A DNA stretch of 61,481 bases from positions 1 to 61,481 of IMG/VR virus record IMGVR_UViG_3300040781_000188. One strand, 5' to 3'. Below the pieces are notes generated by a model, which worked only from the letters and a program-made list of their open reading frames with translations, was not told the DNA's origin and did no database searches. This DNA comes from a virus (lineage: Duplodnaviria; Caudoviricetes). The translations under genes were made by a program, and so were the position numbers. Shown here one piece after another: positions 5,535-54,497 of the stretch (within the stretch, counting starts at the first letter, position 1; each line of letters opens with the position of its first letter).

Positions 5535-5876
5535 ATGAACTCACATTTAGGTAACAGACAATATGAACGAGCTACACATCCTGTTCGATTATCTATAAAT
5601 AAACATATATTAGGATCAACTTTAAATATTAGTATTGGTGGAGCATTTGCTATTGTTAATAAAGAAGTACCAGAGATGGATGAACTTGATATTATTTTAG
5701 AATTACCAGATGGAGACTTTGAAGTTAAAGGTACATGTTTAAGGTCTTCTAGTATGGGAGAAGCTTCGTATCATATCGCTTTATTATTTCAAATAGAGAC
5801 TGAAAATGAAGATAATATATTAAGATTAGCTCGATTTATTAATTGCCAGGAGATGCGTTGCCGGGAGATGCGATAA
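5535..5876 (+). CDS. PilZ domain protein 3
   Basis: RQYER plus NISIGG; ATG 5535. Confidence 0.85.
   Translation: MNSHLGNRQYERATHPVRLSINKHILGSTLNISIGGAFAIVNKEVPEMDELDIILELPDGDFEVKGTCLRSSSMGEASYHIALLFQIETENEDNILRLARFINCQEMRCREMR
5843..5872 (+). repeat. 15-bp tandem duplication
   Basis: TTGCCAGGAGATGCG TTGCCGGGAGATGCG, 1 mismatch. Confidence 0.85.
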
Positions 5877-6112
5877 TGATTTCATTACTCGAGAAAAAAG
5901 TTATTAAAGTAGAAAACACTCCTAATTGGCAAGTACATGATTTCAAGAATCCACCGAATAAGGATATTGCAAAAGATTCTAGAGGGAAACCAATATTTCG
6001 TCGATTCCATCCAAAAGGACGACCAGACCGTTTAATAACCGTCGCGATTAAAAAGAATCCAGGCCCTGCAGGAGGGAAGACGGAAGTCACTTCTGTTTGG
6101 AAGAAAAAATAA
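5876..6112 (+). CDS. Small basic protein with N-terminal tag (MISLLE), putative internal head protein
   Basis: TAATG coupling to the previous gene; shares VENTP...KD..G.PI with 9804..10283. Confidence 0.7.
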   Translation: MISLLEKKVIKVENTPNWQVHDFKNPPNKDIAKDSRGKPIFRRFHPKGRPDRLITVAIKKNPGPAGGKTEVTSVWKKK

Positions 6113-6125
6113 ATAGGAGTAATGG

Positions 6126-6443
6126 ATGATTGACGACAGAAGATTTTATTCTAGAGGAATTATTGAACTAGATATTGCTGTTGGTCCTAGAGCCAAAGGT
6201 AAAACTGTTAATATATCTTTAGGTGGTATTCTTTGTAGGCTTGATACATTTATTCAATCTGATGTTTGTATGGATATTATAATTACTAAGAACGGAGATA
6301 CGATTGAAATGAGAGGGTACTGTAATCGTATCGAGAAAATAAAGAAAAGAGATTATTTAGCATCCATCGAATTTAGTAAAGATTGTATTAGTCCATTTAA
6401 TAAGAATAGACTCAAATTAGCTGAATATTTAAGAGGATATTAA
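6126..6443 (+). CDS. PilZ domain protein 4
   Basis: RFYSR plus NISLGG. Confidence 0.85.
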   Translation: MIDDRRFYSRGIIELDIAVGPRAKGKTVNISLGGILCRLDTFIQSDVCMDIIITKNGDTIEMRGYCNRIEKIKKRDYLASIEFSKDCISPFNKNRLKLAEYLRGY

Positions 6444-6445
6444 AT

Positions 6446-7159
6446 ATGATATCTGTGACTAGAATATATGAAACTTTAGAATTAATGGAACTCGAAGATT
6501 ATATCGAGAATTTAACTGTTGCTTGTTGTGAAACATATCAAGATGAATTTGTTGACGCTGCGGTAAAATATTTAGAAGAAGATGATCATTCTATTTTAGA
6601 TGTTTATTTTGAAAGTCATTCCGAAGTATTAAACGAGCTTAAAGTTAATATTTCAAAAGAGGATGTGGAAGCTGCTAAAAAACATGTTAAAGAAAAATTA
6701 AAAGAATCTGCTAAACAACCAGTTAAGAAATCTCTTATTAGAAAATTAACTAGTAAAATGTATAAGAATAGAGTTGGGCGTGCTATTGTTAAAGGTATCC
6801 GTAAAGCGGGATATGGTACTAAACTTGGTCGAAAAGTTATGGGTAAATATGCGGATGTAAAACAAGCTATGGCTAAAGGTCATAGTGAAATGGGTAAGAA
6901 ATTTACAAAATCAGCAGGACAGTATGGGGCTATGGCTAAAGGTCTTGAAAGAGATGTTATAGGTAATGCATTATATGGAGATACAGCTAAAAATGCAAGA
7001 GATTCTTTTGTGAAAGCTGCCGGTGCTGCAGGACAACGTGCTAGGAGTTCAATGAAAGCAGCAAATCAAACTAAACGTAATTTGAAGATGACAGGTAAAA
7101 GAGAACCAAAAGTTAAATTTTCTATGCCTAAACAAAGAGCTTTACCTCATCCCGCATAA
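6446..7159 (+). CDS. Tagged (MISVTRIYE) protein with acidic N-terminus and basic C-terminus, putative internal head protein
   Basis: Charge switch at VLNE-LKV; Lys/Ala-rich tail. Confidence 0.65.
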   Translation: MISVTRIYETLELMELEDYIENLTVACCETYQDEFVDAAVKYLEEDDHSILDVYFESHSEVLNELKVNISKEDVEAAKKHVKEKLKESAKQPVKKSLIRKLTSKMYKNRVGRAIVKGIRKAGYGTKLGRKVMGKYADVKQAMAKGHSEMGKKFTKSAGQYGAMAKGLERDVIGNALYGDTAKNARDSFVKAAGAAGQRARSSMKAANQTKRNLKMTGKREPKVKFSMPKQRALPHPA

Positions 7160-7174
7160 TCCTGGTAGGTGATA

Positions 7175-7564
7175 ATGCCAAAGAAAAGAATATATTATAA
7201 AGGTAAAAAAGTATCTAAAGGTGAAAAGAAAATAATTGATCATTTACTTAAAAGAGAAATTTCTTTTGAACAAGAGAAGACGTTTGATGATTGTAAAACT
7301 AGGAACAATAGAAAACATCTTCGGTTTGATTTCTTTTTGCCGACATTTAAAGTTCTTATTGAATTTGATGGCGAACATCATTATGGTCCTGTTAATAAAC
7401 ATGCTCGTGCTAAATACGTCCATGAACGTACAGTAATAAATGATCAAATAAAAAATAATTATGTAACAACGACAGGATACGGTTTATTACGGATACCGTA
7501 TTGGGAATATGATAAAATAGAAGAGATAATAGACGAGATGATATCAAATCTAGGAAATAAATAA
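7175..7564 (+). CDS. PD-(D/E)xK (Vsr/DUF559-like) endonuclease
   Basis: SKGEKKI, LRFDFFLP, LIEFDGEHH, LLRIPYW. Confidence 0.8.
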   Translation: MPKKRIYYKGKKVSKGEKKIIDHLLKREISFEQEKTFDDCKTRNNRKHLRFDFFLPTFKVLIEFDGEHHYGPVNKHARAKYVHERTVINDQIKNNYVTTTGYGLLRIPYWEYDKIEEIIDEMISNLGNK

Positions 7565-8625
7565 TGAACCCATCAAATATGGCAAGAAAAATTTTAATAT
7601 TAGATGATGAACAATCTATTGTTGATATTATATCTAAATATTTAATTAGGGTTGGTTATCAACCAATAGGGTTTATTAATGTTGAAAAAGCGTTAGAAAA
7701 ATTCGAACGAACAGAAGATATTTTTCTAGTGTTAACAGATATAGACATGCCAGATATTGACGGTATAACTGTACTTAAATCAATAAAATCGATAAGAATG
7801 GATGTGCAAGTAATTATTGTTTCTGGTGCAGGATCGTCGAATCAAATTGTTGAAGCTTTAAGATACGGGGCTTGTGATTATTTAATGAAGCCAGTTAATT
7901 TTGAATTACTTAATCATTCTATATCTAAATGCTTTGAACGATTTGATTATATTAAACATCGAGATGAATATGAAAAAAATCTCGAGGAACAAGTTAAAAG
8001 ACAAACAGAAAGTATATATTCCTTATTTAATGAATCAATTAAATCGTTGTCTAAAATAACAGCGTTACGAGATCCTTATACTGCTGGTCATCAAAAACGA
8101 GTAACCGATTTAGCTTTAGCTATTAGTCAGGAAATGAATTTAAGTGAAGATATCTGTCAAAGTATTAAAATAGCCGGTTTACTCCATGATGTTGGTAAGA
8201 TTTGTGTTCCAACAGAAATCCTTGTTAAACCTGCAAGATTGACAAAAAAAGAAATAGGATTAATGCAAGAGCATGTCACTGCTAGTTATAATATTGTAAA
8301 GAATATTCCTTTTCAAGATGTATTAAATCATGATGTTGCCGAAATAATACTACAACATCATGAACGTCTTGATGGATCAGGTTATCCTAGAAATCTTAAA
8401 GAAAATGAAATATATTTAGAAACAAAAATACTTTCTGTTTGTGATGTTATAGAATCTATGTCATTACATCGTCCTTATCGTCCCGCCTTAGGATTAAAAA
8501 AGACATTGGATGAAATAAGGAGAGGTTGTGGAACAGTTTATGATAATGATGTTTGTCAGACTGCTATAGCAATATTGGAACCTTATGGAGATAGTTTAAT
8601 GAACTATTTTAAGGGTGAATCATGA
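7564..8625 (+). CDS. Response regulator with HD-GYP cyclic-dinucleotide phosphodiesterase domain (RpfG-like)
   Basis: REC (ILDDE, LTDIDMP, KP) plus RDPYTAGHQKRV, LLHDVGK, HHERLDGSGYP, HRPYR. Confidence 0.95.
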   Translation: MNPSNMARKILILDDEQSIVDIISKYLIRVGYQPIGFINVEKALEKFERTEDIFLVLTDIDMPDIDGITVLKSIKSIRMDVQVIIVSGAGSSNQIVEALRYGACDYLMKPVNFELLNHSISKCFERFDYIKHRDEYEKNLEEQVKRQTESIYSLFNESIKSLSKITALRDPYTAGHQKRVTDLALAISQEMNLSEDICQSIKIAGLLHDVGKICVPTEILVKPARLTKKEIGLMQEHVTASYNIVKNIPFQDVLNHDVAEIILQHHERLDGSGYPRNLKENEIYLETKILSVCDVIESMSLHRPYRPALGLKKTLDEIRRGCGTVYDNDVCQTAIAILEPYGDSLMNYFKGES

Positions 8626-8858
8626 TTTCTCTAGTTGAGTATGAAGTGTTGCAATTCACAAAAAGAGCATATACTGATAAATATCCTGCTATATCGTTAC
8701 CACCAAACATTTCAGATAGAGCAGTCAAAGGAATGGCTTCTCATTTATTGAATATAATAAAACTTCGAGAAAAGAATAACAAACCTTCTGAAGTAGATGA
8801 TAGTCAGGATAAATTTGACGGAACAAATTCAAATTATGATGAAAAGACAAGTATTTAA
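8622..8858 (+). CDS. Small tagged protein (MISLVE)
   Basis: ATGA overlap with the HD-GYP stop. Confidence 0.65.
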   Translation: MISLVEYEVLQFTKRAYTDKYPAISLPPNISDRAVKGMASHLLNIIKLREKNNKPSEVDDSQDKFDGTNSNYDEKTSI

Positions 8859-8909
8859 TTAAAGAATATAATAATTGCCATAGTAGTGTATATGGTGTGG
8901 AGAAGACTA

Positions 8910-9266
8910 ATGAGATCAAAAATTATTTTTGGTTGTTTATTAATCTTTATTTCCTTTATTATTATGGGTGTAGGATTTTCTAAAGGAGATAATGTAACTC
9001 ATTATTCGAACTTCATAACAAAACAAATAAATCAATGTGCGGAACGTAGTCAAAATTTTTGTACTGCAGAAATGCCGAAGATAAAGAGAGAATCTGCAAT
9101 TGATTGTTTAAAGGCTTCTTATTTTTCTTTCCATAGAAAACAATTAATAGACATGATGGTTGAGTATAATATTGGAGTAGAAGAACACCAAATGAGCGTG
9201 TTCTTAAACGGAACGTTCTTTGAAATCCTTAGAACAGCGATTGAAGACTATGATACCAATACATAA
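8910..9266 (+). CDS. Secreted or membrane-anchored hypothetical protein
   Basis: N-terminal hydrophobic segment MRSKIIFGCLLIFISFIIMGVG. Confidence 0.65.
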   Translation: MRSKIIFGCLLIFISFIIMGVGFSKGDNVTHYSNFITKQINQCAERSQNFCTAEMPKIKRESAIDCLKASYFSFHRKQLIDMMVEYNIGVEEHQMSVFLNGTFFEILRTAIEDYDTNT

Positions 9267-9804
9267 TCTTTTTGAACGAAAGTTCATAAGTGGTCCAGAT
9301 TATCAATATAATATGGATGCTTGGAATAATAATAAAACTAATATATTATTAGTGTTAGGTTTGAGTGGTAGTGGTAAGACGACAGATGGCATTTTATTAT
9401 CAAAGAAATATAATGTTGGTTATATCTCTTTGGATGAACTGTTTTATAACCCGATACATGATAAATTTAAAGAAAAAACAGGTCGTTATGCGGCGACAAT
9501 TGAAGAGATGTTAGATATAACTAAAAAGATTAATGTTGGTTTTAAAAAGATGTTACCTACTTTGAAAAAACGGTTTGTTATAGAAGGACTATGGCCGTTA
9601 TTTATGGATCCGAAAGAACTAAAAAATTATTCTATAATAATCAAAGGAACATCTAATTTAAAGTCATCATATCAAGTAAAATCAAGGTCTGATCATCTTA
9701 ATTTGAAAAAATCAGTAGAACGATTTTTATGGACCGCTAATTTTAATAGGCACGTTGATACTCGTATTAAAATGTTTATTCGATATTTTGAAGGATTGAA
9801 ATAA
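9250..9804 (+). CDS. Tagged (MIPIHNLFE) P-loop nucleotide kinase-like protein
   Basis: Walker A GLSGSGKTT, ISLDEL, FVIEG; start moved to ATG 9250. Confidence 0.75.
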   Translation: MIPIHNLFERKFISGPDYQYNMDAWNNNKTNILLVLGLSGSGKTTDGILLSKKYNVGYISLDELFYNPIHDKFKEKTGRYAATIEEMLDITKKINVGFKKMLPTLKKRFVIEGLWPLFMDPKELKNYSIIIKGTSNLKSSYQVKSRSDHLNLKKSVERFLWTANFNRHVDTRIKMFIRYFEGLK

Positions 9805-10283
9805 TGATATCTGTATGTAACTATATAACTCCTATATTTGAAGATAAGAAACCTGATCTTAAAGAGGGCGAATACGCTGTAAGAAAGCGTAAACCTAAAA
9901 AGGTTCTAGATTTCAATCCACGAACTAATCGTATGAAGAAATTTAAACGTACTCAATGGTTTGTTACTAAAATCGCTCCTAAAGATCGTACTGTAGAGAA
10001 CACACCTAAAGATGCTAAAGGGTTTCCCATATGCACACATCAAACATGGCTTATGATTAAAGGAGAACGCAGAACTCCCAACAGCTCTGTTGATAGTTTT
10101 GGTAAATCAGAAGCTAATGGTAGATGGTATGGATGGTCACATAGGGCCATTGCTTCTTTTGGAATTGGTGATGTAGTTAAACCTACTACTTCTGGATTTG
10201 AAAGATTGAAAGAACCATTTACTATTAATTCTGAAGAAAAAGCTAGAGAAGTTGCAAAGAGATTTGCGGAATCTGTTAGCTAG
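9804..10283 (+). CDS. Tagged hypothetical protein (MISVCNYITPIFE)
   Basis: TAATG coupling; WYGWSHRA...FAESVS conserved-looking C-terminal domain. Confidence 0.7.
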   Translation: MISVCNYITPIFEDKKPDLKEGEYAVRKRKPKKVLDFNPRTNRMKKFKRTQWFVTKIAPKDRTVENTPKDAKGFPICTHQTWLMIKGERRTPNSSVDSFGKSEANGRWYGWSHRAIASFGIGDVVKPTTSGFERLKEPFTINSEEKAREVAKRFAESVS

Positions 10284-10292
10284 GAGACTCTT

Positions 10293-10487
10293 ATGTTATC
10301 AATTTTTCAATTATTCGAAATACAACCTAATATGCAAAAAGTGTCAAAAGCGTATTTGGATAAAATCAAGACATTACCTAAAAGTATTAAAAGAGATAAA
10401 CTTTCAAAAGGTTGGATGTTAGCTTTACAAAGACAAAATAAAAGGCCTTCTAGAAAACTTTTGAATTTAGATAATAGTATGTATTAA
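10293..10487 (+). CDS. Small basic tagged protein (MLSIFQLFE)
   Basis: SD AGGAG; tag motif. Confidence 0.7.
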   Translation: MLSIFQLFEIQPNMQKVSKAYLDKIKTLPKSIKRDKLSKGWMLALQRQNKRPSRKLLNLDNSMY

Positions 10488-10509
10488 TATTAAAAGAACC
10501 GATGAAATC

Positions 10510-10716
10510 ATGGAACGTAATCCTAATGTTTTAGAAATGGATAGACGATCAGGAGTTGATAGACGCCAATTTTATAGTGTTGTATATTTTGCGAAAGGCG
10601 GACTAGAGCGAAGATCTGAAATTCCAAGAAGAAAAATTAAATTTGAACGACGACAAAATATCCGTCGAAAATTGAAGGATCGAAGAATTGTTACAAATAT
10701 CATAAAACAAGAGTAG
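10510..10716 (+). CDS. Arg-rich DRR/ERR-repeat peptide
   Basis: DRRSGVDRR, ERRSEIPRR, ERRQNIRR, DRR in 68 aa. Confidence 0.75.
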   Translation: MERNPNVLEMDRRSGVDRRQFYSVVYFAKGGLERRSEIPRRKIKFERRQNIRRKLKDRRIVTNIIKQE

Positions 10717-10725
10717 TGAGTAATT

Positions 10726-11053: not shown

Positions 11054-11272
11054 ATGATTGCAATGTATGAAATGTGGCCATTTAGCAAAAAACAAGATGT
11101 TCCACATCCTGATGAAGGAAAAGAAGCATTAGCTAATAAGGCTGGTGGAACAGATGTGAGCGCATTTAATATGGCAAATCGGCTTAGAAAATTACGTGCT
11201 GCAAAAGAAGATATGTTATCTCAAGCTGGTAATATTGGAAGGAAAGCGGTTACGGTAGCTCAAGGAGATTAA
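11054..11272 (+). CDS. Small tagged protein (MIAMYE)
   Basis: SD AAGGAG. Confidence 0.7.
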   Translation: MIAMYEMWPFSKKQDVPHPDEGKEALANKAGGTDVSAFNMANRLRKLRAAKEDMLSQAGNIGRKAVTVAQGD

Positions 11273-11274: not shown

Positions 11275-11520
11275 ATGCTATCTATACTTGAAATGACGGT
11301 AAACTTACATCCAGATGTTAAGAAGTATGCAAAAAATACAACACAACTAAATAAAGGTATATCTAAAGATTTAGCAGATATGGTTGGTGGTGGATCTAAA
11401 GTAGCTCATGATTATTACAAAGGGTTACAGAGGAACCTAAGAAGAAAAGTAGCAAAAATGCAAATTGATAAATTTAAAATGTCAAGAAAAAATCTAGGCG
11501 GACCACAATTAGCTGTTTAG
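11275..11520 (+). CDS. Small basic tagged protein (MLSILE)
   Basis: SD AAGGAG; tag motif. Confidence 0.7.
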   Translation: MLSILEMTVNLHPDVKKYAKNTTQLNKGISKDLADMVGGGSKVAHDYYKGLQRNLRRKVAKMQIDKFKMSRKNLGGPQLAV

Positions 11521-12964: not shown

Positions 12965-13189
12965 ATGTTACCAGTATCACATTTATTAACGGAAGAAATA
13001 CCAGCTAGCGCAATTCGTAATGCTTTTAAACAGGCTGCAGTATGGGGTCTAGGTGGAGCAGTTGCTGCCAAAGTAGGTCAGGAAAAAAAGAAGTCTTTAA
13101 CTAAAGAAGAGAAAAAAGCAAGGTGGAAAGATTTGTTAACACAAACTGGTATTGGAGCAGCAGCCGGCGCAGCTGGATCATTGATTTGA
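12965..13189 (+). CDS. Small tagged glycine-zipper protein (MLPVSHLLTEE)
   Basis: GLGGAVAA and GIGAAAGAAG segments. Confidence 0.7.
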   Translation: MLPVSHLLTEEIPASAIRNAFKQAAVWGLGGAVAAKVGQEKKKSLTKEEKKARWKDLLTQTGIGAAAGAAGSLI

Positions 13190-13230: not shown

Positions 13231-13401
13231 ATGAATGCTTTTGAATTATCGGGTATTTCTGCTGGACTTGGTGCTTTAGGTATGGTTAAAAAATTGCGGA
13301 GAGTTGATGAAGGTAAAGAAATCGCTGCATTAAAGAACACGAAAAAAGAACAAAAGGGCGAAACTCCGAAACCTAAATCGGAAGTTGTTAAGAGTTGTTA
13401 A
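13231..13401 (+). CDS. 56-aa protein MNAFELSGISAGLGALGMVKKLRR (missing from ORF track)
   Basis: SD AAGGAG, ATG 13231, TAA 13399-13401; paralog of the next gene. Confidence 0.8.
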   Translation: MNAFELSGISAGLGALGMVKKLRRVDEGKEIAALKNTKKEQKGETPKPKSEVVKSC

Positions 13402-14358: not shown

Positions 14359-14994
14359 GTGTTAACTTTTATTCTTAATGAATCATTTCGTGATTATGTA
14401 TTTTATGAAAATGAAGAAAATATACTACTATTAAATGAATATTTAGAATTATTAGAAAATAATCAAGTTACTCCAGATTTAGAACATAAAATATTCGAAA
14501 TCTTAGATCAACACATCTATTATAATTTCGAATTTTATGAAGCAGGTAATACGACTCTTGGTGCTAAATTTCGTAAAGCATTTAAAGAAGAAACAGCTAA
14601 AGCAGATTATAATAAATGGTCAAATAATGATCCTAGACAGCCTGGAATATCTGGTTGGGTTAAGGATAAATTAGGTATTGAAAGTTTTAGACAAGAAGGT
14701 AAAAATATTATTAATAAAGCTAAAACTTCATCAACAAATGCGGTTGCTGATACATCTTATGCTAAGAAGATAAAATCTGCCGCAGAAGCCGGTCTTGCTA
14801 ATATTAAAAAAAGAAGAAAAGATGGGAAAACTGTCCAAGCAGTAGCATCTGCAAGATTAGCTGTTTCTGATCCATCATCTAAGGAAGCAAAAACTTTAAG
14901 GAAACAAAGAGTCAAAGGTTATAATTTGTCTAAATCTGGCAAAATTAGAGAGAAGATATACAAGACGACAAGAAATGTATTAACTAAGAAGTAA
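14359..14994 (+). CDS. Acidic-N/basic-C protein, putative internal head protein
   Basis: SD AAGGAG with GTG start; switch at FYE-AG. Confidence 0.7.
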   Translation: MLTFILNESFRDYVFYENEENILLLNEYLELLENNQVTPDLEHKIFEILDQHIYYNFEFYEAGNTTLGAKFRKAFKEETAKADYNKWSNNDPRQPGISGWVKDKLGIESFRQEGKNIINKAKTSSTNAVADTSYAKKIKSAAEAGLANIKKRRKDGKTVQAVASARLAVSDPSSKEAKTLRKQRVKGYNLSKSGKIREKIYKTTRNVLTKK

Positions 14995-16802: not shown

Positions 16803-17015
16803 ATGCTTTCTTTGTTTGAATATTCAGTCTTGCGAGGGAACCCCAAGCCATTAATAGGATCTCTCGCAAGGCGACCAGAGTATATGATGAAGCCAACGAA
16901 GTCTAATATACAGAGAGATAGTGACGAAAAAGTAAAAATTATGTCTTCAATAAATAGATCCAAATTACCAAAGGCGAAGAAATTTTCGACTTGGGGATCT
17001 CGTAAGATGAAATAG
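16803..17015 (+). CDS. Small basic tagged protein (MLSLFE)
   Basis: SD GAGGG; tag motif. Confidence 0.7.
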   Translation: MLSLFEYSVLRGNPKPLIGSLARRPEYMMKPTKSNIQRDSDEKVKIMSSINRSKLPKAKKFSTWGSRKMK

Positions 17016-21766: not shown

Positions 21767-21958
21767 ATGTTATCTATTGTTAGATATTTAAATGAAACTT
21801 GGAGCGCAACTCCGATTCAACCGCCTGTTGGATCAGTATCTAGTGGATATCAAAATATCATTGATCGAAATCTAAAAACAGGAAATGGGCAATTTTTATT
21901 ACTAAGGAAAAACAAAGATGATAAGTCTATTAGAATATCCTATGCCCCAAAGAAGTAA
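21767..21958 (+). CDS. Small tagged protein (MLSIVRYLNE)
   Basis: SD AAGGA; tag motif. Confidence 0.65.
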   Translation: MLSIVRYLNETWSATPIQPPVGSVSSGYQNIIDRNLKTGNGQFLLLRKNKDDKSIRISYAPKK

Positions 21959-22250
21959 TTCTGTGGCTCCTATTGGACCGATGACTAATACTTTGCGCCC
22001 AAGATCCCCTATGAATTCACGATTTGTTAGAATGGGAACACCTGTACGGAGAGCAAGTTTAAGTACAAGTGTTCCCTCTGTACCAAGTAAGAATAATTTA
22101 GGTTTGGGGAATATTGATCGTATGAGGAGAAATGTTAGTGTCTCTCCCACTACAGGTACAAAGATGTCATCAACAGGATTAAAATTAGCTGGGAAAAATG
22201 TGCCACCGGGAACAGCTATAATGAATGTCCCAGTTAGGAGATTACGATGA
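21918..22250 (+). CDS. Tagged low-complexity basic protein (MISLLE)
   Basis: SD AAGGA; Pro/Ser/Arg-rich. Confidence 0.65.
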   Translation: MISLLEYPMPQRSNSVAPIGPMTNTLRPRSPMNSRFVRMGTPVRRASLSTSVPSVPSKNNLGLGNIDRMRRNVSVSPTTGTKMSSTGLKLAGKNVPPGTAIMNVPVRRLR

Positions 22251-28900: not shown

Positions 28901-30283
28901 ATTGTTGAAAAATTAGTAAATGGCGAGCAAATACCCCCTTATGAAAAAAGATATATCCATAAAGATGGGAGTGTTATAGATATTGAACTTGCTCCTTATC
29001 CTATTTCTGATGATTCTGGTAATGTTGTTGAATTATGGGGTATTGCAAAGAATTTAACGCCAGTTAGAAATGTTCAATTAGAAATAATAGAAAAAGAAAA
29101 ACAATTACGTCGGGCTTCTAAAATGGAAGCTGTTGGTACTTTAGCTGGTGGATTAGCTCATGACTTTAATAATATTATTCAAATAGTAAGTGGTAATGTT
29201 CAATTAATGCGTATGGATTTGGATTCTGACGGAAAAACTTCTGATTGGAGTAAAATGTTAAATGATATGTTAGAAGCTTCTGAGAGAGGAGCTGCTATTG
29301 CAAAACGTCTTTTAACTTTTAGTCGTCAAGTCGAAAGCCATCTTGTACCAATTGATATCAATGATGAAATTATTATTGCTCATAAATTATTAGACAGAAC
29401 TGCAACGTGGCCGGTTTTAGTTAATATTAAATTAGATCTTGATGAAGATATTTGTTTAATTTTAGCGGACTCTACACAGATTAATCAGATCGTTACAAAT
29501 CTATGTATTAATGCTAAAGATGCAATGCCTTCTGGTGGATCAATAACAATTAAAACTAGAGTTGCAGAATTAGATGAATTATATTGTCGTTCTCAACCTG
29601 AAGCTGTCCCGGGAAGATACGTTTGTATGGTAGTTGCTGATGATGGTATAGGTATGAAAGCTTCTATTCTTGAAAGAATATTTGAACCATTTTTCACAAC
29701 TAAAAGTACAGGAAAAGGAACAGGATTAGGTTTAGCTGTTGTTTATGGTATTGTTAAAAATCATAATGGTTTTATAACTGTATATAGCGAAGAAAATATC
29801 GGAACGGAGTTCAAAGTGTATGTGCCATGTACAGATCAAACTCTTAGAGAAAATAATAGTTCTTCTGTTTGTGATTTATCTCAAGGTAATAAAGAATTAA
29901 TACTTATTGTAGATGATGAGTCTAGTATACGGTTTATTCTTAAAGATATATTAAGAAGGTATAATTTTAAAGTTCTCGAAGCTAATAATGGAACTACTTG
30001 TTTAGATTTATATAGTAAATATATGGATAAAATAGAACTTGTTATTTTAGATCTAGTTATGCCTGGAATAAGCGGAACAGAAACATTAAAAGAAATTTTA
30101 AAGATTAATCCTGATGCTAAAGTTATTATTTCTAGTGGGTATTCGTCTAATGGTCCAGTTAAAGATTCAATTGAAAATGGAGCATATTCTTTTATAAATA
30201 AACCATATACATTAAATAATCTTATTAGTGTCATTAAGAGAGTTCTTAGTGGCAAAAGAGATGGAGTAGATGAGATATGTTAA
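25955..30283 (+). CDS. Membrane hybrid histidine kinase (periplasmic solute-binding domain, TM helices, PAS, GAF, 3 PAS, HisKA, HATPase, REC)
   Basis: [60 protein letters not shown]. Confidence 0.95.
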
Positions 30284-30519
30284 GCATTCACCATTTATTG
30301 GAAAGTAACATACTTCAGATTGGGCCGAATGCAGAAAGCGATGTTGAAGAACTTTCTCCAGAAGGCGATAAATTAGATAAACAAATTATTAAAAATGCGT
30401 TTACTGGTGGGGATCGTACTCATGGAGAAGTCGATCCAAAAGCATCGCCTCCGAATCCTGATGCAGCATATAAATATGTAAATACACCACTTGAAAGAAT
30501 TACTAAGACACGAATATAA
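30277..30519 (+). CDS. Small tagged protein (MLSIHHLLE)
   Basis: Overlaps the kinase stop; tag motif. Confidence 0.7.
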   Translation: MLSIHHLLESNILQIGPNAESDVEELSPEGDKLDKQIIKNAFTGGDRTHGEVDPKASPPNPDAAYKYVNTPLERITKTRI

Positions 30520-30649: not shown

Positions 30650-31111
30650 ATGATAAGTTTATTTGACCAAGGATTCTTAAACAGAAACTGGGGCAAATTA
30701 GCTCTTGGTGGTGGAGCTCTTGCTGTAGGCTCGATGGTTGGTGATGACCCAGAGAATTTTAAAAGTGTTACAAAAAAAGCAATGACCTCTACTAAAAACA
30801 CGATACAAGACACCCCTAAATCGATTCCTAGAGTAATAAAAAATAACTCTAATTATAATGATTTTGGTAAAGCAACAACCGCTTGGAAAGAAAAAGGTGG
30901 TAAAGCTGTTATGCAAGTGAGGCAGAGACTTTCCAATATAGATCCGGATGCCGCCGTTCAAAAGGGAGCTAGAAAAATAGGACAAATAGCAAGAACAACT
31001 AAAGACTATACAGATCGAACTGCAGGTAGTTTTAGAAGTGGTTATTCTGCTAATATTCCTAAATTGCCTAGCGAAAAATACGATGCTCGAGGAAGGATTA
31101 CTGGCTTATAA
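30650..31111 (+). CDS. Tagged basic protein (MISLFDQ) with Gly-rich helix
   Basis: SD GGAG before ATG 30650. Confidence 0.7.
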   Translation: MISLFDQGFLNRNWGKLALGGGALAVGSMVGDDPENFKSVTKKAMTSTKNTIQDTPKSIPRVIKNNSNYNDFGKATTAWKEKGGKAVMQVRQRLSNIDPDAAVQKGARKIGQIARTTKDYTDRTAGSFRSGYSANIPKLPSEKYDARGRITGL

Positions 31112-33459: not shown

Positions 33460-33988
33460 TGAATTAAAAAATGCAGATGCTTCGACATCAGATACTTATG
33501 ATTATATTGGTGATGATTTTTCTAAACAAAAGAGTGAATTAGAAAAACAAATTATTGTCATGACGACAAGACAATCTGAAATTCAAAATCATATTCTTGC
33601 AATAGAACAAAATATTTCGTTTCTTAATAGCTATATAGCTAAGAATAAAGAGGATCAAGAGAAACAAAGAGTTGGGCGAGGAGCAATATCAAAGAATATT
33701 GAATTACTTGCAAAATTATATCAAGTGTACAGAGAATTCGAAGATACAAAGGTTCGTTATTATAAGAATATTTCTGATGACACATATAGATTTCATCATT
33801 TAATCTCTGTTGATATTAGGAGAATAGATGAAAAATTTTCAGCTGTTGAAGGTGGAGATTTCTTTGGTGTTATAAAAGAAATGATGAATTTAATTCAACA
33901 TGTTCAAAATGAACATGGTGGAAAGATTCCCTTGACAGAGGATCTTCAAGGAGATTTAGTAAAAACAAATCCGGAGTATGACTTATGA
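33449..33988 (+). CDS. Coiled-coil hypothetical protein
   Basis: 179-aa ORF coupled to neighbours. Confidence 0.7.
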   Translation: MTNDELKNADASTSDTYDYIGDDFSKQKSELEKQIIVMTTRQSEIQNHILAIEQNISFLNSYIAKNKEDQEKQRVGRGAISKNIELLAKLYQVYREFEDTKVRYYKNISDDTYRFHHLISVDIRRIDEKFSAVEGGDFFGVIKEMMNLIQHVQNEHGGKIPLTEDLQGDLVKTNPEYDL

Positions 33989-34230
33989 TTTCTATTCGAT
34001 ATTTATTTGAAACGTCAAAATATAAGCCTTGGATGGTAGGCACACCTGTACAAATAGGTGGTCCTGGGTATCCAACTGGGGATTTAAGACTAACTAAGGC
34101 GCCACCGGGTCAAATGTTGGCTTTACAAAAAAATGCAGAGCAGTTAACTAATGTTCAAAATGCTGAAATGAAAAAAGAATTAAGAAGGAAAAGGAATCTT
34201 ACTCCAGCAGAACTTGCTAGCGGAGCATAG
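33985..34230 (+). CDS. Small tagged protein (MISIRYLFE)
   Basis: ATGA overlap; tag motif. Confidence 0.7.
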   Translation: MISIRYLFETSKYKPWMVGTPVQIGGPGYPTGDLRLTKAPPGQMLALQKNAEQLTNVQNAEMKKELRRKRNLTPAELASGA

Positions 34231-34239: not shown

Positions 34240-34473
34240 ATGTTATCTCTGTCTAAATATTACAACAAAATAGAAGAACGGGATATGGTTGTGATAAGAA
34301 GAATTGAACGAAAAGAATCTTATCCTCCAAAACCCGATGATGGTGAAGATGAAGTAGAAACTGTTTCAACTCCAGAAGAGGATGTTTCTGTTGTAAAAGG
34401 TAAAGAAATAAATAAAACAACTGGTGAAGAGATAGAAAAAGAACCTGTCGTAATAAGGCGAATGAAGAAATAA
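34240..34473 (+). CDS. Small tagged protein (MLSLSKYYNKIEE)
   Basis: SD GGAG; VVIRR at both ends. Confidence 0.7.
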   Translation: MLSLSKYYNKIEERDMVVIRRIERKESYPPKPDDGEDEVETVSTPEEDVSVVKGKEINKTTGEEIEKEPVVIRRMKK

Positions 34474-48631: not shown

Positions 48632-48817
48632 ATGTTATCTATATCTAGATTATTTGAAGAAATATCATCATTTCCGCTTTCAAGGAAACTACAGAAAACC
48701 GCATCTAAATTATATATGCGTGGTACCCCAGAATATAACACTATTGCTCAAAGAATTGCGGAAAAGGCTAAAACAGTTTCTCCAAAATATCAAGCAATGA
48801 AAAGGAAGCTTTCGTAA
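48632..48817 (+). CDS. Small basic tagged protein (MLSISRLFEE)
   Basis: SD GAGGG; tag motif. Confidence 0.7.
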   Translation: MLSISRLFEEISSFPLSRKLQKTASKLYMRGTPEYNTIAQRIAEKAKTVSPKYQAMKRKLS

Positions 48818-49176: not shown

Positions 49177-49537
49177 AGAAAGACTTGCTATGATAACTGT
49201 CGAAAGAAGAAAACACAATAGAATTAAAACACCTAAAATTTCATTTGCTGCTATTACCGGTAAAGAACTTTCTATGATAGTAAATAAGAAAGTTGTATTT
49301 GGTAGAGTGTACGATATAGATCCTGATGGGTTATGTGTAACATCTGATACGTTATTACCCGAGGGTAAAAATATTGAATTAATATTAAGACTATTTAAAA
49401 AAGATGTGAAATTTAATGGTAATATTATTCGAGCTAATAAAGAACACGACACTACATTTCTGGCGTTTCTATTTAATTGGAAAAATACACCAGAACAGAG
49501 TAAAGAATTTCTTCAAAAATTCTTAGAGACTATATGA
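49169..49537 (+). CDS. PilZ domain protein 7
   Basis: ERRKHNR plus variant DIDPDG, GNIIR. Confidence 0.75.
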   Translation: MNKERLAMITVERRKHNRIKTPKISFAAITGKELSMIVNKKVVFGRVYDIDPDGLCVTSDTLLPEGKNIELILRLFKKDVKFNGNIIRANKEHDTTFLAFLFNWKNTPEQSKEFLQKFLETI

Positions 49538-49544: not shown

Positions 49545-50075
49545 ATGTTATCATTACTAAAACTATTTGAACTACAAGATTTACCTTGGAGATACAAACG
49601 TGGTGGCAGAGTACCTTTTGGTGCAGATAAAGTTAACGCTGCTATGTTTGCTTGGTTTGTTTTCCATGATGGAGAAAAACCTCCTTTTATACCAGGTAGA
49701 GTAGTTAATCATCCAGAGAAGAACTGGAAAGGTATGGGCGTAGATAAAGTTATACCTACTAAAGCTCTAGATGATTTATATGCTATTAAACAAATTCAAG
49801 GTAGAGCAAGTTGTCAAGGTACTCTTACGGATGCAAATGGTGAATTAGAAGTTCCTACTTACTATATATTTAGACCTCTTAATCAAGATAAACGATATGT
49901 TGAAACTATAGTAAACAAACTAAATAAATATTCAGATGTTAAATCTAATTACGATATAGGATTAGGTAATGAATTTCGTATAGGTGTTGTTGGGAATATG
50001 TCTTATGAAACTAATCCTAAAAGTTTTACTAAATGGTGGAATGAGTTACCAATTAAGATTAAGAAATCATTATAA
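49545..50075 (+). CDS. Tagged hypothetical protein (MLSLLKLFE)
   Basis: SD GAGGA; contains RASCQG. Confidence 0.7.
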   Translation: MLSLLKLFELQDLPWRYKRGGRVPFGADKVNAAMFAWFVFHDGEKPPFIPGRVVNHPEKNWKGMGVDKVIPTKALDDLYAIKQIQGRASCQGTLTDANGELEVPTYYIFRPLNQDKRYVETIVNKLNKYSDVKSNYDIGLGNEFRIGVVGNMSYETNPKSFTKWWNELPIKIKKSL

Positions 50076-50262: not shown

Positions 50263-50291
50263 ATTTCTATATATCTAAAGAGAATATAAAA
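50263..50291 (-). promoter_or_regulatory. Conserved promoter-like motif, copy 2
   Basis: ATTTCTATATA-N9-AATATAAAA, 2 mismatches to the consensus. Confidence 0.55.
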
Positions 50292-50824
50292 TGATATCTA
50301 TATCTCAACTTTTAGAACAAGAAAATCAAGTCCAAATCTATTGTGATATGGATGGAGTGCTTACGGATTTTAACGAGTCTGCTAAAAAGATTGGATGGAA
50401 AGGTCCACTTCCAGCGGTTACAAAAGAGGATAAATCAGCACTCTGGAAAATGGTAGTAGGAAATGCCGAAAAATTTTGGGGCGATATGCCTTGGAAAGAA
50501 GACGGTAAAATACTTTGGGAATTCATTAAGCCATATGATCCTATACTTTTGACATCTGTCGCTAATAGTCTAAGTTCAAAGTTGGGCTCAGGCGGAAAAC
50601 GTGGAAAAGAACGTTGGGTTGGGAGAGAGTTAGGTCGGGATTATGTCAAAAACAATCTGATCGTTGTAGCTTCGCATGGAAAAACTAAATATGCAAAGAA
50701 GGGTTCTATTTTAATCGACGATTTTGAAAAAAATATAATTCCTTGGGAATCTGCTGGTGGGATTGGTATTTTACATACGTCAGCTGATAGAACTATAGAT
50801 GAGTTAAAGAAACTATTGCAATAA
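50291..50824 (+). CDS. Tagged (MISISQLLE) HAD-family 5'(3')-deoxyribonucleotidase-like phosphatase
   Basis: IYCDMDGVL, ILLTS, K, ILIDD motifs. Confidence 0.88.
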   Translation: MISISQLLEQENQVQIYCDMDGVLTDFNESAKKIGWKGPLPAVTKEDKSALWKMVVGNAEKFWGDMPWKEDGKILWEFIKPYDPILLTSVANSLSSKLGSGGKRGKERWVGRELGRDYVKNNLIVVASHGKTKYAKKGSILIDDFEKNIIPWESAGGIGILHTSADRTIDELKKLLQ

Positions 50825-50844
50825 AAAAGACGGGTTACGTCTTT
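50822..50844 (-). terminator. Terminator between convergent genes
   Basis: AAAGACG GGTTA CGTCTTT with A-tract on the left. Confidence 0.55.
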
Positions 50845-51065
50845 CCTCCATAAACGGGGCATTCGCCTTCGTCATATGGGTTCATCTCTACGGCCTCGCG
50901 AATAATGTACTCCGCAACGCTTTCGAGGGCTATGCGGATACTACTCACTGGAATCTCTTCCAGGTTCTTCTCCGCATAGGTTAAGGTTACTGGGAAAGCT
51001 ATTCCCAGTACTCGGACGAGCTCATAAAGCTCATCCTGCCCCAGGCCTTCCAGCTGTTTGATCAT
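50835..51065 (-). CDS. Small hypothetical protein (MIKQLEGLG...); minus strand, ORF-track label is wrong
   Basis: Reverse complement reads AAGGAGGCCCAT ATG ATC AAA CAG. Confidence 0.75.
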   Translation of the reverse strand: MIKQLEGLGQDELYELVRVLGIAFPVTLTYAEKNLEEIPVSSIRIALESVAEYIIREAVEMNPYDEGECPVYGGKT

Positions 51066-51110
51066 ATGGGCCTCCTTTGTTGTGGTTTGAGGTGCATTCG
51101 CCTTCGTCAT
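50859..51110. repeat. 17-bp direct repeat pair
   Basis: GCATTCGCCTTCGTCAT at 50859-50875 and 51094-51110. Confidence 0.9.
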
Positions 51111-51273
51111 GGGTTTATTTTTACAAACTTTTTGTTCGTTTTATCTTATGATATTTCTTGTGCATAATCGAACAATTACGCACTCCCAAGCACCCTCATA
51201 AGTAGGGTCCGCGCCAGCACCACAATGGTGACTGGAATTAGGAATCTCGCGGGCGCAGCTATAACGATTCGCT

Positions 51274-51654
51274 TTACCTTGCTAGAGCAAGGCATCCGAC
51301 GATACTACCGTCGGACTTACGAACCATCCTTGCAACGGTCAACAGATCGGTTCTACCCGTCTGTCGAGCAGCGTTGGCAGTGATAGCTGAGACGATGTAG
51401 AATACACCTTTTTCAGGTGCAGGGAGATTTTCAACCTCCCCATATTCCAACCCAATAGTTGGAATATTTTCTATCGCCTCTGCATCTACCTCGACTACTG
51501 AGCAACGTGGAACGTTGCCCGAGGTTGCAGGGATCTCGCAAACGACGACAGGGTCGCCCACGAGGTTATAACTCCGAGTACGTTTGTTGTACTCGGCACA
51601 CACTGGCGACAGAATTGTCACCGCATGTGGCGTCATATTGATGACGCTGGTCAT
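51274..51654 (-). CDS. Conserved phage hypothetical protein (NxTPH...LPAP...YIVS...RxDL...G.IVGC family); minus strand, ORF-track label is wrong
   Basis: Reverse complement reads AAGGAGAAAGGGTT ATG ACC AGC GTC. Confidence 0.8.
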   Translation of the reverse strand: MTSVINMTPHAVTILSPVCAEYNKRTRSYNLVGDPVVVCEIPATSGNVPRCSVVEVDAEAIENIPTIGLEYGEVENLPAPEKGVFYIVSAITANAARQTGRTDLLTVARMVRKSDGSIVGCLALAR

Positions 51655-51713
51655 AACCCTTTCTCCTTACAAGAGAAAGTCATTTAATTGCCCAGCGTTG
51701 GGGCTTAATTCTA

Positions 51714-51742
51714 ATTTCTTTATATGATTTTTGAATATTAAA
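51714..51742 (-). promoter_or_regulatory. Conserved promoter-like motif, copy 3
   Basis: ATTTCTTTATA-N9-AATATTAAA(GGATAAA). Confidence 0.65.
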
Positions 51743-51743
51743 G

Positions 51744-51762
51744 GATAAAGCCCCGAAGGGCT
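51744..51762 (-). terminator. UUCG-tetraloop terminator-like hairpin
   Basis: Minus strand AGCCC TTCG GGGCT TTAT right after the stop of 51761..52243. Confidence 0.7.
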
Positions 51763-52243
51763 ACTCCTTAAATTCGTTAATAATGACTGTTTTACATTTC
51801 TCTAGATATGCTATAACCCCATCAATCACTATATCTTCATCTTCATCGTGTTCTTCTAAATGTTTATGTATCATATCTAGCAGATATATATGCAGAAACA
51901 TATTATTATAAAAAGGTTTAAGATCATTGAAGTGGTTAGCATAATCAGATACATCGTGTGTTAACTTAAATTTTCCTTCCTTATCATAACCAACAAATTG
52001 ATTAGGTAATGCATACATCAATGTATCATCTGAATCTATAATAGTGGCGAATTTATCGAATACAAAAGCTCTACCCATCATTTTTGTTATGTCACTATCT
52101 AGGTGATCATCTAGAGTTCTTATCATTTCTTCCATTAATTCTTCACTGAACTCATCAATTAGTCTTTGCGATAAATAAAGTTCTAACCGGTCTGTGAAAA
52201 CTTTAATAAGTGATTTTTTCATTACCTCTAACCATTCAGCCAT
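51761..52243 (-). CDS. Hypothetical protein
   Basis: 160-aa acidic ORF, SD AAGGA. Confidence 0.75.
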   Translation of the reverse strand: MAEWLEVMKKSLIKVFTDRLELYLSQRLIDEFSEELMEEMIRTLDDHLDSDITKMMGRAFVFDKFATIIDSDDTLMYALPNQFVGYDKEGKFKLTHDVSDYANHFNDLKPFYNNMFLHIYLLDMIHKHLEEHDEDEDIVIDGVIAYLEKCKTVIINEFKE

Positions 52244-52273
52244 TTTAATCCTTTCATCTTTTTTTGATAGAGA

Positions 52274-52663
52274 TTAATAATAGACATATATGTGAGTCGA
52301 ATTAGCAGTTTCCAAAACTCTATTTAATTCTCTTTCCCATGTTTTTGCATCAAGATTACTGGGTAATTCTGTTATTGTTGCTCCAAGAAATATTCTTAAT
52401 TTACAAGATAAATTTGGATGTATTAATGTGCCGTCTTTACGTTTATCACAAATTGGTATTATTTCTAAATTTATATCTGATGTGTAATATTCTTTATTGT
52501 GATGTATTAGAATTGATTTTGGTTCATCTTTGATTACATTAATCATATGCCCTAATATCTCACCATTAAATAGAACATCCCAATTACTTCGATTTATTCT
52601 TGGCATTTGTTTAATTAAAGATTTGGTCATTCGACGTTTCATTGTTACGATTTCAATTTCCAT
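52274..52663 (-). CDS. Hypothetical protein
   Basis: SD GGAG before ATG 52663. Confidence 0.7.
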   Translation of the reverse strand: MEIEIVTMKRRMTKSLIKQMPRINRSNWDVLFNGEILGHMINVIKDEPKSILIHHNKEYYTSDINLEIIPICDKRKDGTLIHPNLSCKLRIFLGATITELPSNLDAKTWERELNRVLETANSTHIYVYY

Positions 52664-52700
52664 TTTTGTCTCCATAATAAAAGTTAATGTTAGAAGAATC

Positions 52701-52729
52701 ATTTCTTTATATAATTGTTAAATATTAAA
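52701..52729 (-). promoter_or_regulatory. Conserved promoter-like motif, copy 4
   Basis: ATTTCTTTATA-N9-AATATTAAA(GGATAAA). Confidence 0.65.
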
Positions 52730-52739
52730 GGATAAAAGT

Positions 52740-53243
52740 ATGGCAAAATTTCGTCATTTTGAGGAAAGTAGAATCCAACTTGGTGTTGGGGAAGTACACA
52801 TTCAAGAAGTAAGTGATGGTGTACATCTTACTATTAGCGAAGAAATAGAACACAGTATTCGATTAGGTATTCCAAATGAACATGGAACTACTTATAATTA
52901 TTGGCGCGATATTGTTAATATATTAAAAGATGATGAAGACTCAATTAAATTAGCTTCTGCTATAGTTGAATTAGAAGACTCTGATCTAAATCAAGAAGAA
53001 TTGCCTAAACCATTAAGACCAGAATTTGTTAATTTCTCTGATAATAATATTGATTGGATTGGAATAAAATTATTGACTTCGAATGGAGATCCTATTCTTG
53101 TCTGTTGGGAAAAAGGATCAGGCATTCCTATACCAACTATTTCATTTAATTTAGATTGGATAAAGAAAGCGACTAAAATTGGACAGTCTGTATTTTATCA
53201 AGAACTCGCCAAAGTTTGTTCGAAAGTGTTAGACGAAGTATGA
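52740..53243 (+). CDS. Hypothetical protein
   Basis: 167-aa ORF, SD AAGGA. Confidence 0.7.
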   Translation: MAKFRHFEESRIQLGVGEVHIQEVSDGVHLTISEEIEHSIRLGIPNEHGTTYNYWRDIVNILKDDEDSIKLASAIVELEDSDLNQEELPKPLRPEFVNFSDNNIDWIGIKLLTSNGDPILVCWEKGSGIPIPTISFNLDWIKKATKIGQSVFYQELAKVCSKVLDEV

Positions 53244-53407
53244 AAACTAAAATTATAAATCAATGTGATCTAAAACATTTAGAGCAATTGATTACTTGTC
53301 CATATTATGAATGGAGATTATCTCCATTTAAATGTAATTGGAAATCATTATCTGATGAATGCTTGAATAAAAAAGCACAAGAATATTGGCTTAATAAAAG
53401 GGACTGA
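53240..53407 (+). CDS. Small four-Cys protein
   Basis: ATGA overlap at 53240. Confidence 0.55.
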   Translation: MKTKIINQCDLKHLEQLITCPYYEWRLSPFKCNWKSLSDECLNKKAQEYWLNKRD

Positions 53408-53409
53408 TT

Positions 53410-54072
53410 ATGATACCTATTTCATATTTATTTGAAGTAAGTAGATTAAAAAAAGAAATCAGATTAGGGAAACTGTCTGATGAAGGTATAATGAAAGCTC
53501 GAATGGCAGGACAAATCAAGCCTTTTCATAAATGGAGAAAAGGTATCGATAAAGGGACTAATGAACTTATTCGAAAATCAGGAGCAAAGAAATTAGTTTC
53601 TTCTGATTCATTTGGTGTTCATAAAGACAGAATTTATTCAAATGTACCACAGATGATGACAAGAGATGGAGAGAGACTTGTTGTTCTTCCAAAAACGTCC
53701 TCATCATTTTATAAAGACAAAAATCTTAGTCCTCGTGATGCTACTATTATAAATAGACATGAAGCGGACGAATCTCGGTATGGTAAAGAATATAAAAATA
53801 AATTTGGAGTTAATTTAGCAGGGAGATTTTCAAAACGGGAAGGGACAGGAGAGAAACATGTTTCTGCAAGAGTTACAAAGAGGGAATCAGAAAATCTCAA
53901 TACTGGAAAAGCATATGGACTAGGGTCTTTCCTCAGGTCTCATCGTGAAAAAACTGGAGAATCTAATTTAGTAAAGAAATCAGATAAAGAACTCAAAAAA
54001 ATTGAGAGTAGAAGAATTAAAGATTTTTTGAAGAAAAGTAATCAAATCTCTCCTGAACTGAATTTATATTAA
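53410..54072 (+). CDS. Tagged basic protein (MIPISYLFE)
   Basis: Tag identical to that of the next gene; contains RHEADE. Confidence 0.75.
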   Translation: MIPISYLFEVSRLKKEIRLGKLSDEGIMKARMAGQIKPFHKWRKGIDKGTNELIRKSGAKKLVSSDSFGVHKDRIYSNVPQMMTRDGERLVVLPKTSSSFYKDKNLSPRDATIINRHEADESRYGKEYKNKFGVNLAGRFSKREGTGEKHVSARVTKRESENLNTGKAYGLGSFLRSHREKTGESNLVKKSDKELKKIESRRIKDFLKKSNQISPELNLY

Positions 54073-54083
54073 AGGATTGTAAA

Positions 54084-54497
54084 ATGATACCTATTTCATA
54101 TTTATTCGAACAACCACAAGAATTACCTCCAGAAGAACAGGGTAATCTTGCTGATCGTATTTATGTTAGAGCGTTAGAAAGAGTACCTACTCCCGAACAA
54201 GATGAAGAAGCAGCAATTAGTGATGAAGCTGCTGCAAAAATAGAACAAGAAAAACAGGCAGCGAAAGTTGCTGCAGCTACTGCAGAAATGCGGAATAGAG
54301 ATCCAGAATTAAAACAATTAAAAGCCGCAGAAGCTATTCATAATAAACAAGCTGCTGAAGATGTTAAATCACTAGAACAGGGCGCAGTTCCTCCTAATGT
54401 AGAGCAAGATAAGGCCGAACAAGCCGCTGCTATGCAAGGCCCGCCCGAGGGTAATTCCCAAGGGCAAGTCCAAGAGAATTTATTTCAATATATTTAA
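54084..54497 (+). CDS. Tagged acidic Gln/Glu/Ala-rich protein (MIPISYLFE)
   Basis: SD AAGGA; tag motif. Confidence 0.75.
   Translation: MIPISYLFEQPQELPPEEQGNLADRIYVRALERVPTPEQDEEAAISDEAAAKIEQEKQAAKVAAATAEMRNRDPELKQLKAAEAIHNKQAAEDVKSLEQGAVPPNVEQDKAEQAAAMQGPPEGNSQGQVQENLFQYI

Follow-up and report, generated by a model that had tools for sequence, protein, structure and literature searches.

Results

A short N-terminal peptide on unrelated proteins of a jumbo-phage fragment

The stretch of DNA studied here (the window) is IMG/VR record IMGVR_UViG_3300040781_000188, whose 61,481 bases are the entire record for the source genome, and our subject is a short N-terminal peptide, hydrophobic and usually ending in Glu (the tag), that recurs at the start of 22 proteins in a window with 89 called proteins. 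The G+C content is ~32% and the + strand holds nearly all genes. Searches with Pfam and PHROGs recognised a gp5-type baseplate hub, tail tube and sheath-like genes, a T4-type large terminase, a UvsX-like recombinase and an endolysin, and because of this gene set we regard the window as a fragment of a T4-related jumbo phage that stops before the head genes. It also carries a large and unusual signalling set (4089-11034, 22807-30283, 49169-49537 and 54512-55270), comprising eight PilZ proteins, a receiver-HD-GYP protein, a lone receiver, a hybrid histidine kinase of 1,442 amino acids (aa) with PAS and GAF domains and a second PAS-HisKA protein, while a FliN-domain protein adjoins the baseplate hub.

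A preliminary description of this DNA had claimed one tag common to more than 20 proteins. Translation of the 22 coordinates yielded the quoted peptide in every case, at an ATG except for the GTG at 14359. The tagged open reading frames (ORFs) are given below with their isoelectric point (pI) or fold where relevant, and with the state of the orthologue in G001, an IMG/VR contig of 109 kb (CheckV 41% complete) that is syntenic with the window.

5876..6112 (+), tagged ORF of 78 aa, tag MISLLE (5876-5893), pI 10.5
6446..7159 (+), tagged ORF of 237 aa, tag MISVTRIYE (6446-6472); G001 orthologue also tag-like
8622..8858 (+), tagged ORF of 78 aa, tag MISLVE (8622-8639)
9250..9804 (+), tagged ORF of 184 aa, tag MIPIHNLFE (9250-9276); body P-loop kinase-like (lead only)
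9804..10283 (+), tagged ORF of 159 aa, long tag MISVCNYITPIFE (9804-9842); Pfam Tad6 match in C-terminal part; tag of G001 orthologue 9 residues
10293..10487 (+), tagged ORF of 64 aa, tag MLSIFQLFE
11054..11272 (+), weak member of 72 aa, MIAMYE; Met at P3 and hence no L/I-x-E
11275..11520 (+), tagged ORF of 81 aa, tag MLSILE
12965..13189 (+), tagged ORF of 74 aa, tag MLPVSHLLTE(E); G001 orthologue tagged
14359..14994 (+), doubtful member of 211 aa, GTG start, VLTFILNE; N-terminus of G001 orthologue similar, without the Glu
16803..17015 (+), tagged ORF of 70 aa, tag MLSLFE; similar tagged ORF in G001
21767..21958 (+), tagged ORF of 63 aa, tag MLSIVRYLNE; N-terminal part of a single 164-aa ORF in G001
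21918..22250 (+), ambiguous ORF of 110 aa, MISLLE; overlaps the ORF at 21767
30277..30519 (+), tagged ORF of 80 aa, tag MLSIHHLLE; G001 orthologue tagged
30650..31111 (+), doubtful member of 153 aa, MISLFD, Asp replacing Glu
33985..34230 (+), tagged ORF of 81 aa, tag MISIRYLFE; G001 orthologue tagged, 51% identical
34240..34473 (+), tagged ORF of 77 aa, long tag MLSLSKYYNKIEE; G001 orthologue tagged
48632..48817 (+), tagged ORF of 61 aa, tag MLSISRLFE
49545..50075 (+), tagged ORF of 176 aa, tag MLSLLKLFE; G001 orthologue tagged
50291..50824 (+), tagged ORF of 177 aa, tag MISISQLLE on a 5'(3')-deoxyribonucleotidase; tag outside the modelled fold
53410..54072 (+), tagged ORF of 220 aa, tag MIPISYLFE
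54084..54497 (+), tagged ORF of 137 aa, tag MIPISYLFE; G001 orthologue tagged, 62% identical

Four of these (21918, 14359, 11054 and 30650) are doubtful members. The ORF at 21918 is so regarded because it overlaps the one at 21767 and the two form one 164-aa ORF in G001, so that its MISLLE may start at a Met inside a single frameshifted gene; the overlap (21767-22250) comes either from a frameshift beside an A-run or from a genuine split.

The 22 starts follow the pattern M-[IL]-[SPAT]-[ILVMF]…E over 6-13 residues, each tag sits at the earliest, or almost the earliest, start codon of its own ORF, and a GGAG/AGGA-type ribosome site precedes most of them. Two main forms can be told apart, one of six residues (M-I-S-L-L-E type), found on at least six unrelated window ORFs, and one of nine (M-I-S-I-x-x-L-F-E), along with a few longer variants. 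Searched as a regular expression, the first four residues (M-[IL]-[SPAT]-[ILVMF]) matched 24 of the 89 called N-termini, whereas 500 shuffles of residues 2-15 averaged 1.2 matches and never gave more than 6, an excess that bears out the preliminary description; among internal Met positions the figure was 6 of 422. The 24 matches are the 22 listed starts plus those at 1842 and 5526, neither of which we accept as a tag, and a six-frame scan of the window revealed no further convincing copy. By contrast with the tagged set, the PilZ, receiver, histidine-kinase, FliN, gp5-hub and terminase genes, said earlier to lack the tag, were checked and do lack it.

The motif [LI]-x-E occurs within the first 13 residues of 20 of the 22 tags (the exceptions being 11054 and 30650), compared with 12 of the 67 untagged N-termini and 162 of 1,320 internal 13-mers (12%). 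Across the 73 tags of three genomes (the window, G001 and the lineage G002 described below), the first Glu stands at position 6 in 18, 7 in 7, 9 in 31 and 10 in 6.

Selection acts on the peptide

The same residues are written with mixed codons: Ile as ATA (8) or ATT (4), Leu as TTA (8), CTA (1) or CTT (1), and Ser as TCT (10), TCA (3), AGT (2) or AGC (1). The DNA upstream of the tagged starts has the ribosome site only in common. Because the codons vary and the upstream DNA is unconserved past the ribosome site, selection on the tag acts at the peptide level, as had been proposed. Beyond the tag the proteins diverge, again in agreement with the earlier claim: once the first 14 residues were removed, no pair among the 22 bodies gave a BLASTP match at E <= 0.01. 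It is very improbable, in our judgement, that conservation resides in the nucleic acid, as an enhancer of translation initiation or as a recombination cassette, the peptide then being incidental; the AT-rich first codons and the invariable location of the tags at gene starts would suit such a signal, yet synonymous codons vary at every position, including between the unlinked Ser families TCN and AGY, the upstream DNA is unconserved, and positions 7-9 (L-F-E) are kept as residues across tag-using lineages whose core proteins are roughly 27-55% identical.

The tag persists in relatives while its cargo changes

In tblastn comparisons with G001, 63 of the 89 window proteins found a match, among them 15 of the 22 tagged ones, and a tag-like N-terminus is kept in 11 of these 15 orthologues. 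G001 has about 24 tagged starts when judged by eye and 19 under a strict filter. Another lineage, G002 (285,572 bp, 95% complete, 29% G+C), came to light when the DNA pattern encoding M-I-x-I-S-x-L-F-E was searched for; the four-residue pattern fits 36 of its 466 ORFs, 35 of them also with E or D, and its tagged genes are often arranged in tandem, in arrays of genes of 57-100 aa. The tag is also borne by three more contigs that contain the protease clade (see below). The pattern scan had returned 19 loci, of which seven (L011, L013, L014, L016, L022, L025 and L026) had no start fitting the tag pattern and are probably chance matches; L008 and L023 gave one isolated match each, in GC-richer DNA, and in L018 the sole fit to the four-residue pattern was an unrelated 799-aa ORF.

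None of the 22 tagged window proteins has a homologue in G002, compared with 24 of the 67 untagged proteins, which include the core genes (p = 5e-4), and the difference is also seen when sizes are matched (8 of 43 untagged proteins of <=240 aa versus 0 of 22 tagged; p = 0.044). The label is thus kept while the attached cargo is replaced between lineages. The FliN, radical-SAM and PilZ proteins were considered as partners of the tag and rejected, because G002 has no homologues of them and still uses the tag.

A gp21-like protease and tag-like starts on head proteins

The head modules of G001 and G002 both follow the gene order of T4, with a T4-type portal followed by a small protein, then a protease and the major capsid protein. 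The protease matched Pfam S77 at 27.2 bits (cut-off 27) and phrog_207 at E = 5.6e-17. A contig of 306 kb encodes a protease identical to that of G001. An AlphaFold model built from 42 sequences (mean predicted local distance difference test (pLDDT) score 69.5) was compared with known structures by Foldseek, and T4 gp21 (5JBL) was the sole match (E = 7.6e-10; TM-score normalised to the 5JBL chain 0.76), while a profile of the two proteases run against Protein Data Bank sequences found nothing meaningful. By these matches, the lineage has a prohead protease of gp21 fold. His90, Ser156 and Asp183 are invariant in the alignment of the 42 sequences, as are, near the N-terminus, Glu19 in F-I-x-E (residues 16-19) and Glu34 in I-L-E-E, the latter two being possible self-processing sites.

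The major capsid protein begins M-D-T-L-F-E in G001 and M-Y-E-Q-A-I-F-E in G002, followed in both by N-Y-E-M-F. Among 81 full-length homologues, which are 39-93% identical, 80 have [LIV][FY]E in the first 14 residues and 80 begin M-x(2-9)-[LI]-[FY]-E, with the Glu at position 6 in 36, 7 in 30 and 8 in 10 (76 in total). Between portal and protease, where T4 has its core proteins, lies a protein that in G002 begins M-L-L-V-E-V-L-F-E and in G001 carries T-I-L-E at residues 11-14. In the IMG/VR contigs with the protease clade, five of five capsid genes begin in this [LI]-[FY]-E manner and have at least one small tagged ORF within 10 kb. Of all the observations, the tag-like peptide on the capsid and core-position proteins ties the tag most firmly to head assembly.

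The tagged proteins are small, basic and varied

Tagged window proteins have a median length of 95.5 aa and a median pI of 9.84, against 167 aa and 6.70 for the untagged ones (p = 6e-4), and the pI follows the same trend in G002 (9.16 versus 6.57; p = 0.003). In three of them the body could be recognised. The C-terminal part of the protein at 9804-10283 matches Pfam Tad6, a Thoeris inhibitor (64 bits), and Tad6 is reported to bind ThsB in an editorial (PMC13728456). The protein at 50291-50824 is a 5'(3')-deoxyribonucleotidase by Pfam and PHROGs; that at 9250-9804 resembles a P-loop nucleotide kinase (an Atlas lead only), and an Atlas search with the protein at 53410 gave no lead.

These properties bear on the possibility, which we think rather unlikely, that the tag does direct proteins to the prohead and is cleaved there, the proteins themselves being structural, whether core, scaffold or fillers that condense DNA, and either mostly degraded or never active in the next host. 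Most tagged proteins are indeed small and very basic, like DNA-binding fillers, and in neither G001 nor G002 was a distinct scaffold gene identified in the interval from protease to capsid protein. A structural set should, however, be conserved, and 0 of 22 have G002 homologues; moreover, a Tad6 domain and a nucleotidase fold are functional domains.

The nucleotidase allowed the tag to be placed relative to a folded body. Its model has a mean pLDDT of 93.5 while residues 1-10 average 53, and the first strand begins at residue 15, so that in the model the tag lies outside the nucleotidase fold. Among 120 listed homologues, the 20 that match the regular expression and 3 near-matches all fall within the 24 most similar, and more distant homologues have other N-terminal extensions or begin just ahead of the catalytic D-x-D, by a few residues. 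Across phage lineages, then, this one enzyme bears different labels or none. Homologues P0145-P0240, from other lineages, show recurring extensions with acidic ends, for example with M-Y-K-L-T or M-I-K-L-K starts, and these may be lineage-specific counterparts of the tag.

Upstream sequences were also scanned for promoter motifs. The octamer of the T4 late promoter was not enriched (11 matches versus 13.6 expected). In G002 a TATATAGA-type motif stands upstream of two tagged genes and three tail-and-baseplate genes, among eight downstream genes, numbers too small to weigh. The intergenic DNA of G002 (L028-L042) also contains a 20-base perfect palindrome around GGCAAGATCTTGCC in 11-12 of 48 upstream spacers of at least 45 nt; this palindrome is absent from the window.

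Other features of the window

Two further N-terminal arrangements were encountered. The ORFs at 37286 and 37730, which start M-S-Y-Q-T, were examined as look-alikes of the T4 tag and rejected as simple paralogues over the first 65 residues; these neighbours in the structural block at 37286-38503 (+) are 46% identical over that length and have [LFV]-x-E at residues 6-8, and their common start may be another processed N-terminus. A second recurrent N-terminal module occurs on several small proteins (window 13231-13630; G001 91425-91748) and consists of short peptides ending in Glu (M-N-A-F-E, M-T-K-L-E) followed by a glycine-rich G-I-S-A-G-L-G-A-L.

The large terminase is split by a group I intron at 55766-56011 (+) (Rfam RF00028, 111.8 bits), into parts at 55236-55778 and 56110-57411, whereas in G001 and G002 it is a single unbroken gene of 617-618 aa. 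The UvsX-like recombinase is present as two ORFs, 34495-34875 and 34935-35948 (+), with a gap of 59 nt, and as a single gene in G001 (484 aa) and G002 (467 aa). A four-gene minus-strand block at 50835-52702 (-) has a G+C of 0.41 against ~0.32 and no homologues in G001 or G002, and may be an insertion. A minus-strand pair at 17110-19771 (-), encoding a DUF2201 metallopeptidase/VWA-like protein and an AAA ATPase, is kept in both relatives. A 966-aa window protein gave no match in tblastn searches against cultured phages.

Discussion

A probable T4-type principle with a different code

We think it rather probable, by analogy with T4, that the tag M-I/L-S/P-I/V-(x-x-L)-F/L-E is a capsid-targeting propeptide of T4 type that is removed by the head protease and used on an unusual scale. 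The observations on which this reading builds are the tag itself, peptide-level selection on it, its portability, its conservation in relatives, the fold of the protease and the motif common to head proteins; from these, with T4 as the guide, we infer binding of the tag, cleavage after the Glu, packaging and injection. The hydrophobic N-terminal part, which is like the N-terminal tip of the clade's capsid protein, would bind the growing core or scaffold during head assembly and would pull the attached protein into the prohead. The gp21-type prohead protease would then cut after the Glu of [LI]-x-E, and the small, mostly basic mature protein would remain with the DNA in the head and may enter the next host alongside it. 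The preliminary description had drawn the analogy with the T4 leader, and the gp21-fold protease of the relatives, the L/I-x-E of 20 of the 22 tags, the starts of the capsid and core proteins and the small, basic, fast-changing cargo all add to it; its statements on packaging, cleavage and injection stay at the level of analogy, and injection is one possible purpose of the tag among several.

In T4, gp21 cleaves after L/I-X-E and itself has a candidate site, LIE-9 (PMC9026906). According to the same account, targeting by the 10-residue IPIII tag depends on positions 4 and 7 and its processing on positions 8 and 10, an Asp at position 10 blocks processing and leaves targeting intact, and the peptide alone suffices to load a foreign protein into the head, which was shown for T4 only (PMC9026906). 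T4 tags are described as 10-20 residues long, with six residues removed from Alt at ITE-6 (PMC5694885), and the internal proteins, whose tag is put at ~10 residues, as "highly basic" (PMC8442874). They are also presented as a diverse set of defence proteins in which the targeting sequence alone is conserved (PMC3012670).

Akin to the T4 internal proteins, the proteins described here are unrelated, basic and fast-evolving, and carry a short N-terminal peptide with a hydrophobic-x-Glu end; relatives in the clade have the gp21-fold protease together with T4-type portal, terminase and capsid genes. The peptide differs, M-I-S-I-x-x-L-F-E having only its hydrophobic-x-Glu end in common with the T4 10-mer as given in PMC8442874, and we therefore regard the tag as a probable functional analogue of the T4 tag with its own code, not as the same peptide. 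It differs also in scale, with a handful of carriers in T4 and here 22 in 61 kb, or about 35 per genome, and in its carriers, which include enzymes and a Tad6-like protein; it further resembles the N-terminus of the clade's own capsid protein, and it is known from genes alone. Closer in length are Alt (ITE-6) and gp21 (LIE-9): the short form of the tag is likewise six residues ending in [LI]-x-E, and the clade protease has its invariant F-I-x-E, but in T4 these are single proteins whereas here the short form is spread over unrelated ORFs.

The jumbo phages phiKZ, 201phi2-1 and SPN3US offer a second comparison, since many of their head proteins are cut after Glu by a distant relative of gp21, the S80 protease, and some homologues of the clade protease bear the S80 Pfam label. 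The tags have neither of the two marks of phiKZ-type S80 processing, long propeptides and S/A-X-E. Propeptides in that group are given as mostly >100 residues (PMC5694885) and there is no single common peptide, in contrast to tags of 6-13 residues, and the motif reported for the group is S/A-x-E (PMC9026906), whereas P3 is Leu or Ile in 20 of the 22 tags.

A third parallel is conceptual. Encapsulin cargo-loading peptides, too, are short and portable and load unrelated cargo into a shell of HK97-type fold. They are usually C-terminal and uncleaved, in which they differ from the tag, and no homology is implied. In the literature on capsid targeting in jumbo and metagenomic phages that we covered (bioRxiv supplements and subscription journals lay outside its scope), no account of the tag was found.

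Points that weigh against the propeptide reading

Several observations count against a T4-type propeptide. The window has no head module, and the protease is known from the relatives G001 and G002 only; its many metagenomic homologues are labelled S77 and/or S80 by Pfam, its own cleavage specificity is a prediction, and in the nearest cultured phages the capsid protein is only about 21-23% identical over most of its length. The Glu is not universal: 6 of the 73 tags from three genomes have none within 16 residues, the ORF at 30650 ends LFD, and several G001 copies end LFVD, LFID, LFG or LFND. Inside proteins, the motif [ST][IL][LFVY]E is not clearly enriched (8 versus 5.8 ± 2.4 in shuffles for the window, 19 versus 9.8 ± 3.4 for G001). 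A tag on one gene in four is well outside the range set by T4, two of the cargo proteins are enzymes of nucleotide-metabolism type with no obvious gain from carriage in the head, and the promoter scans found no late-promoter motif shared by tagged and head genes. The tagged window genes, finally, lie amid signalling genes and not head genes.

This last point, with the accessory genes that also surround the tagged ones, is among those that would suit a signal unrelated to the capsid, for sorting, stability or partner binding (an N-terminal degron that sets when accessory proteins are removed, a peptide bound by chaperones, or an address for export or a different compartment), an explanation to which we give a minor but real chance. 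A hydrophobic N-terminus is generic, two of the cargo proteins look like cytoplasmic enzymes, and the place of the tagged proteins in the virion is deduced. Such a signal would nevertheless leave unexplained why the capsid protein (80 of 81) and the core-position protein have the same [LI]-F-E start, why 20 of 22 tags end in the gp21 motif, and why the tagged set is small and of high pI.

Implications for the phage clade

As read from these genomes, an uncultured clade of jumbo phages apparently applies the T4 principle with another code to 20-35 genes in each genome, by means of a peptide that echoes the start of the capsid protein, a likeness that suggests how such codes arise. A bolder proposal, which we hold only tentatively and consider more doubtful than the propeptide itself, is that a copy of the capsid tip serves as a universal address by which dozens of fast-changing proteins are pre-loaded and injected as an arsenal, including the Tad6-like Thoeris blocker, the nucleotidase and the kinase-like enzyme. 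Were this true, the tag would make it possible to pick out injected anti-defence and takeover proteins by sequence, and the nucleotidase extensions of other lineages would be equivalent lineage-specific codes.

If the tag works as we propose, the T4 capsid-targeting principle would scale to dozens of cargo types, with a code that differs by lineage, and a new short tag would be available to load foreign proteins into phage heads. The head-carried or injected proteome of an uncultured giant-phage clade would then be readable from sequence alone, and the tagged proteins, otherwise ORFans, would be prime candidates for anti-defence and host-takeover functions.

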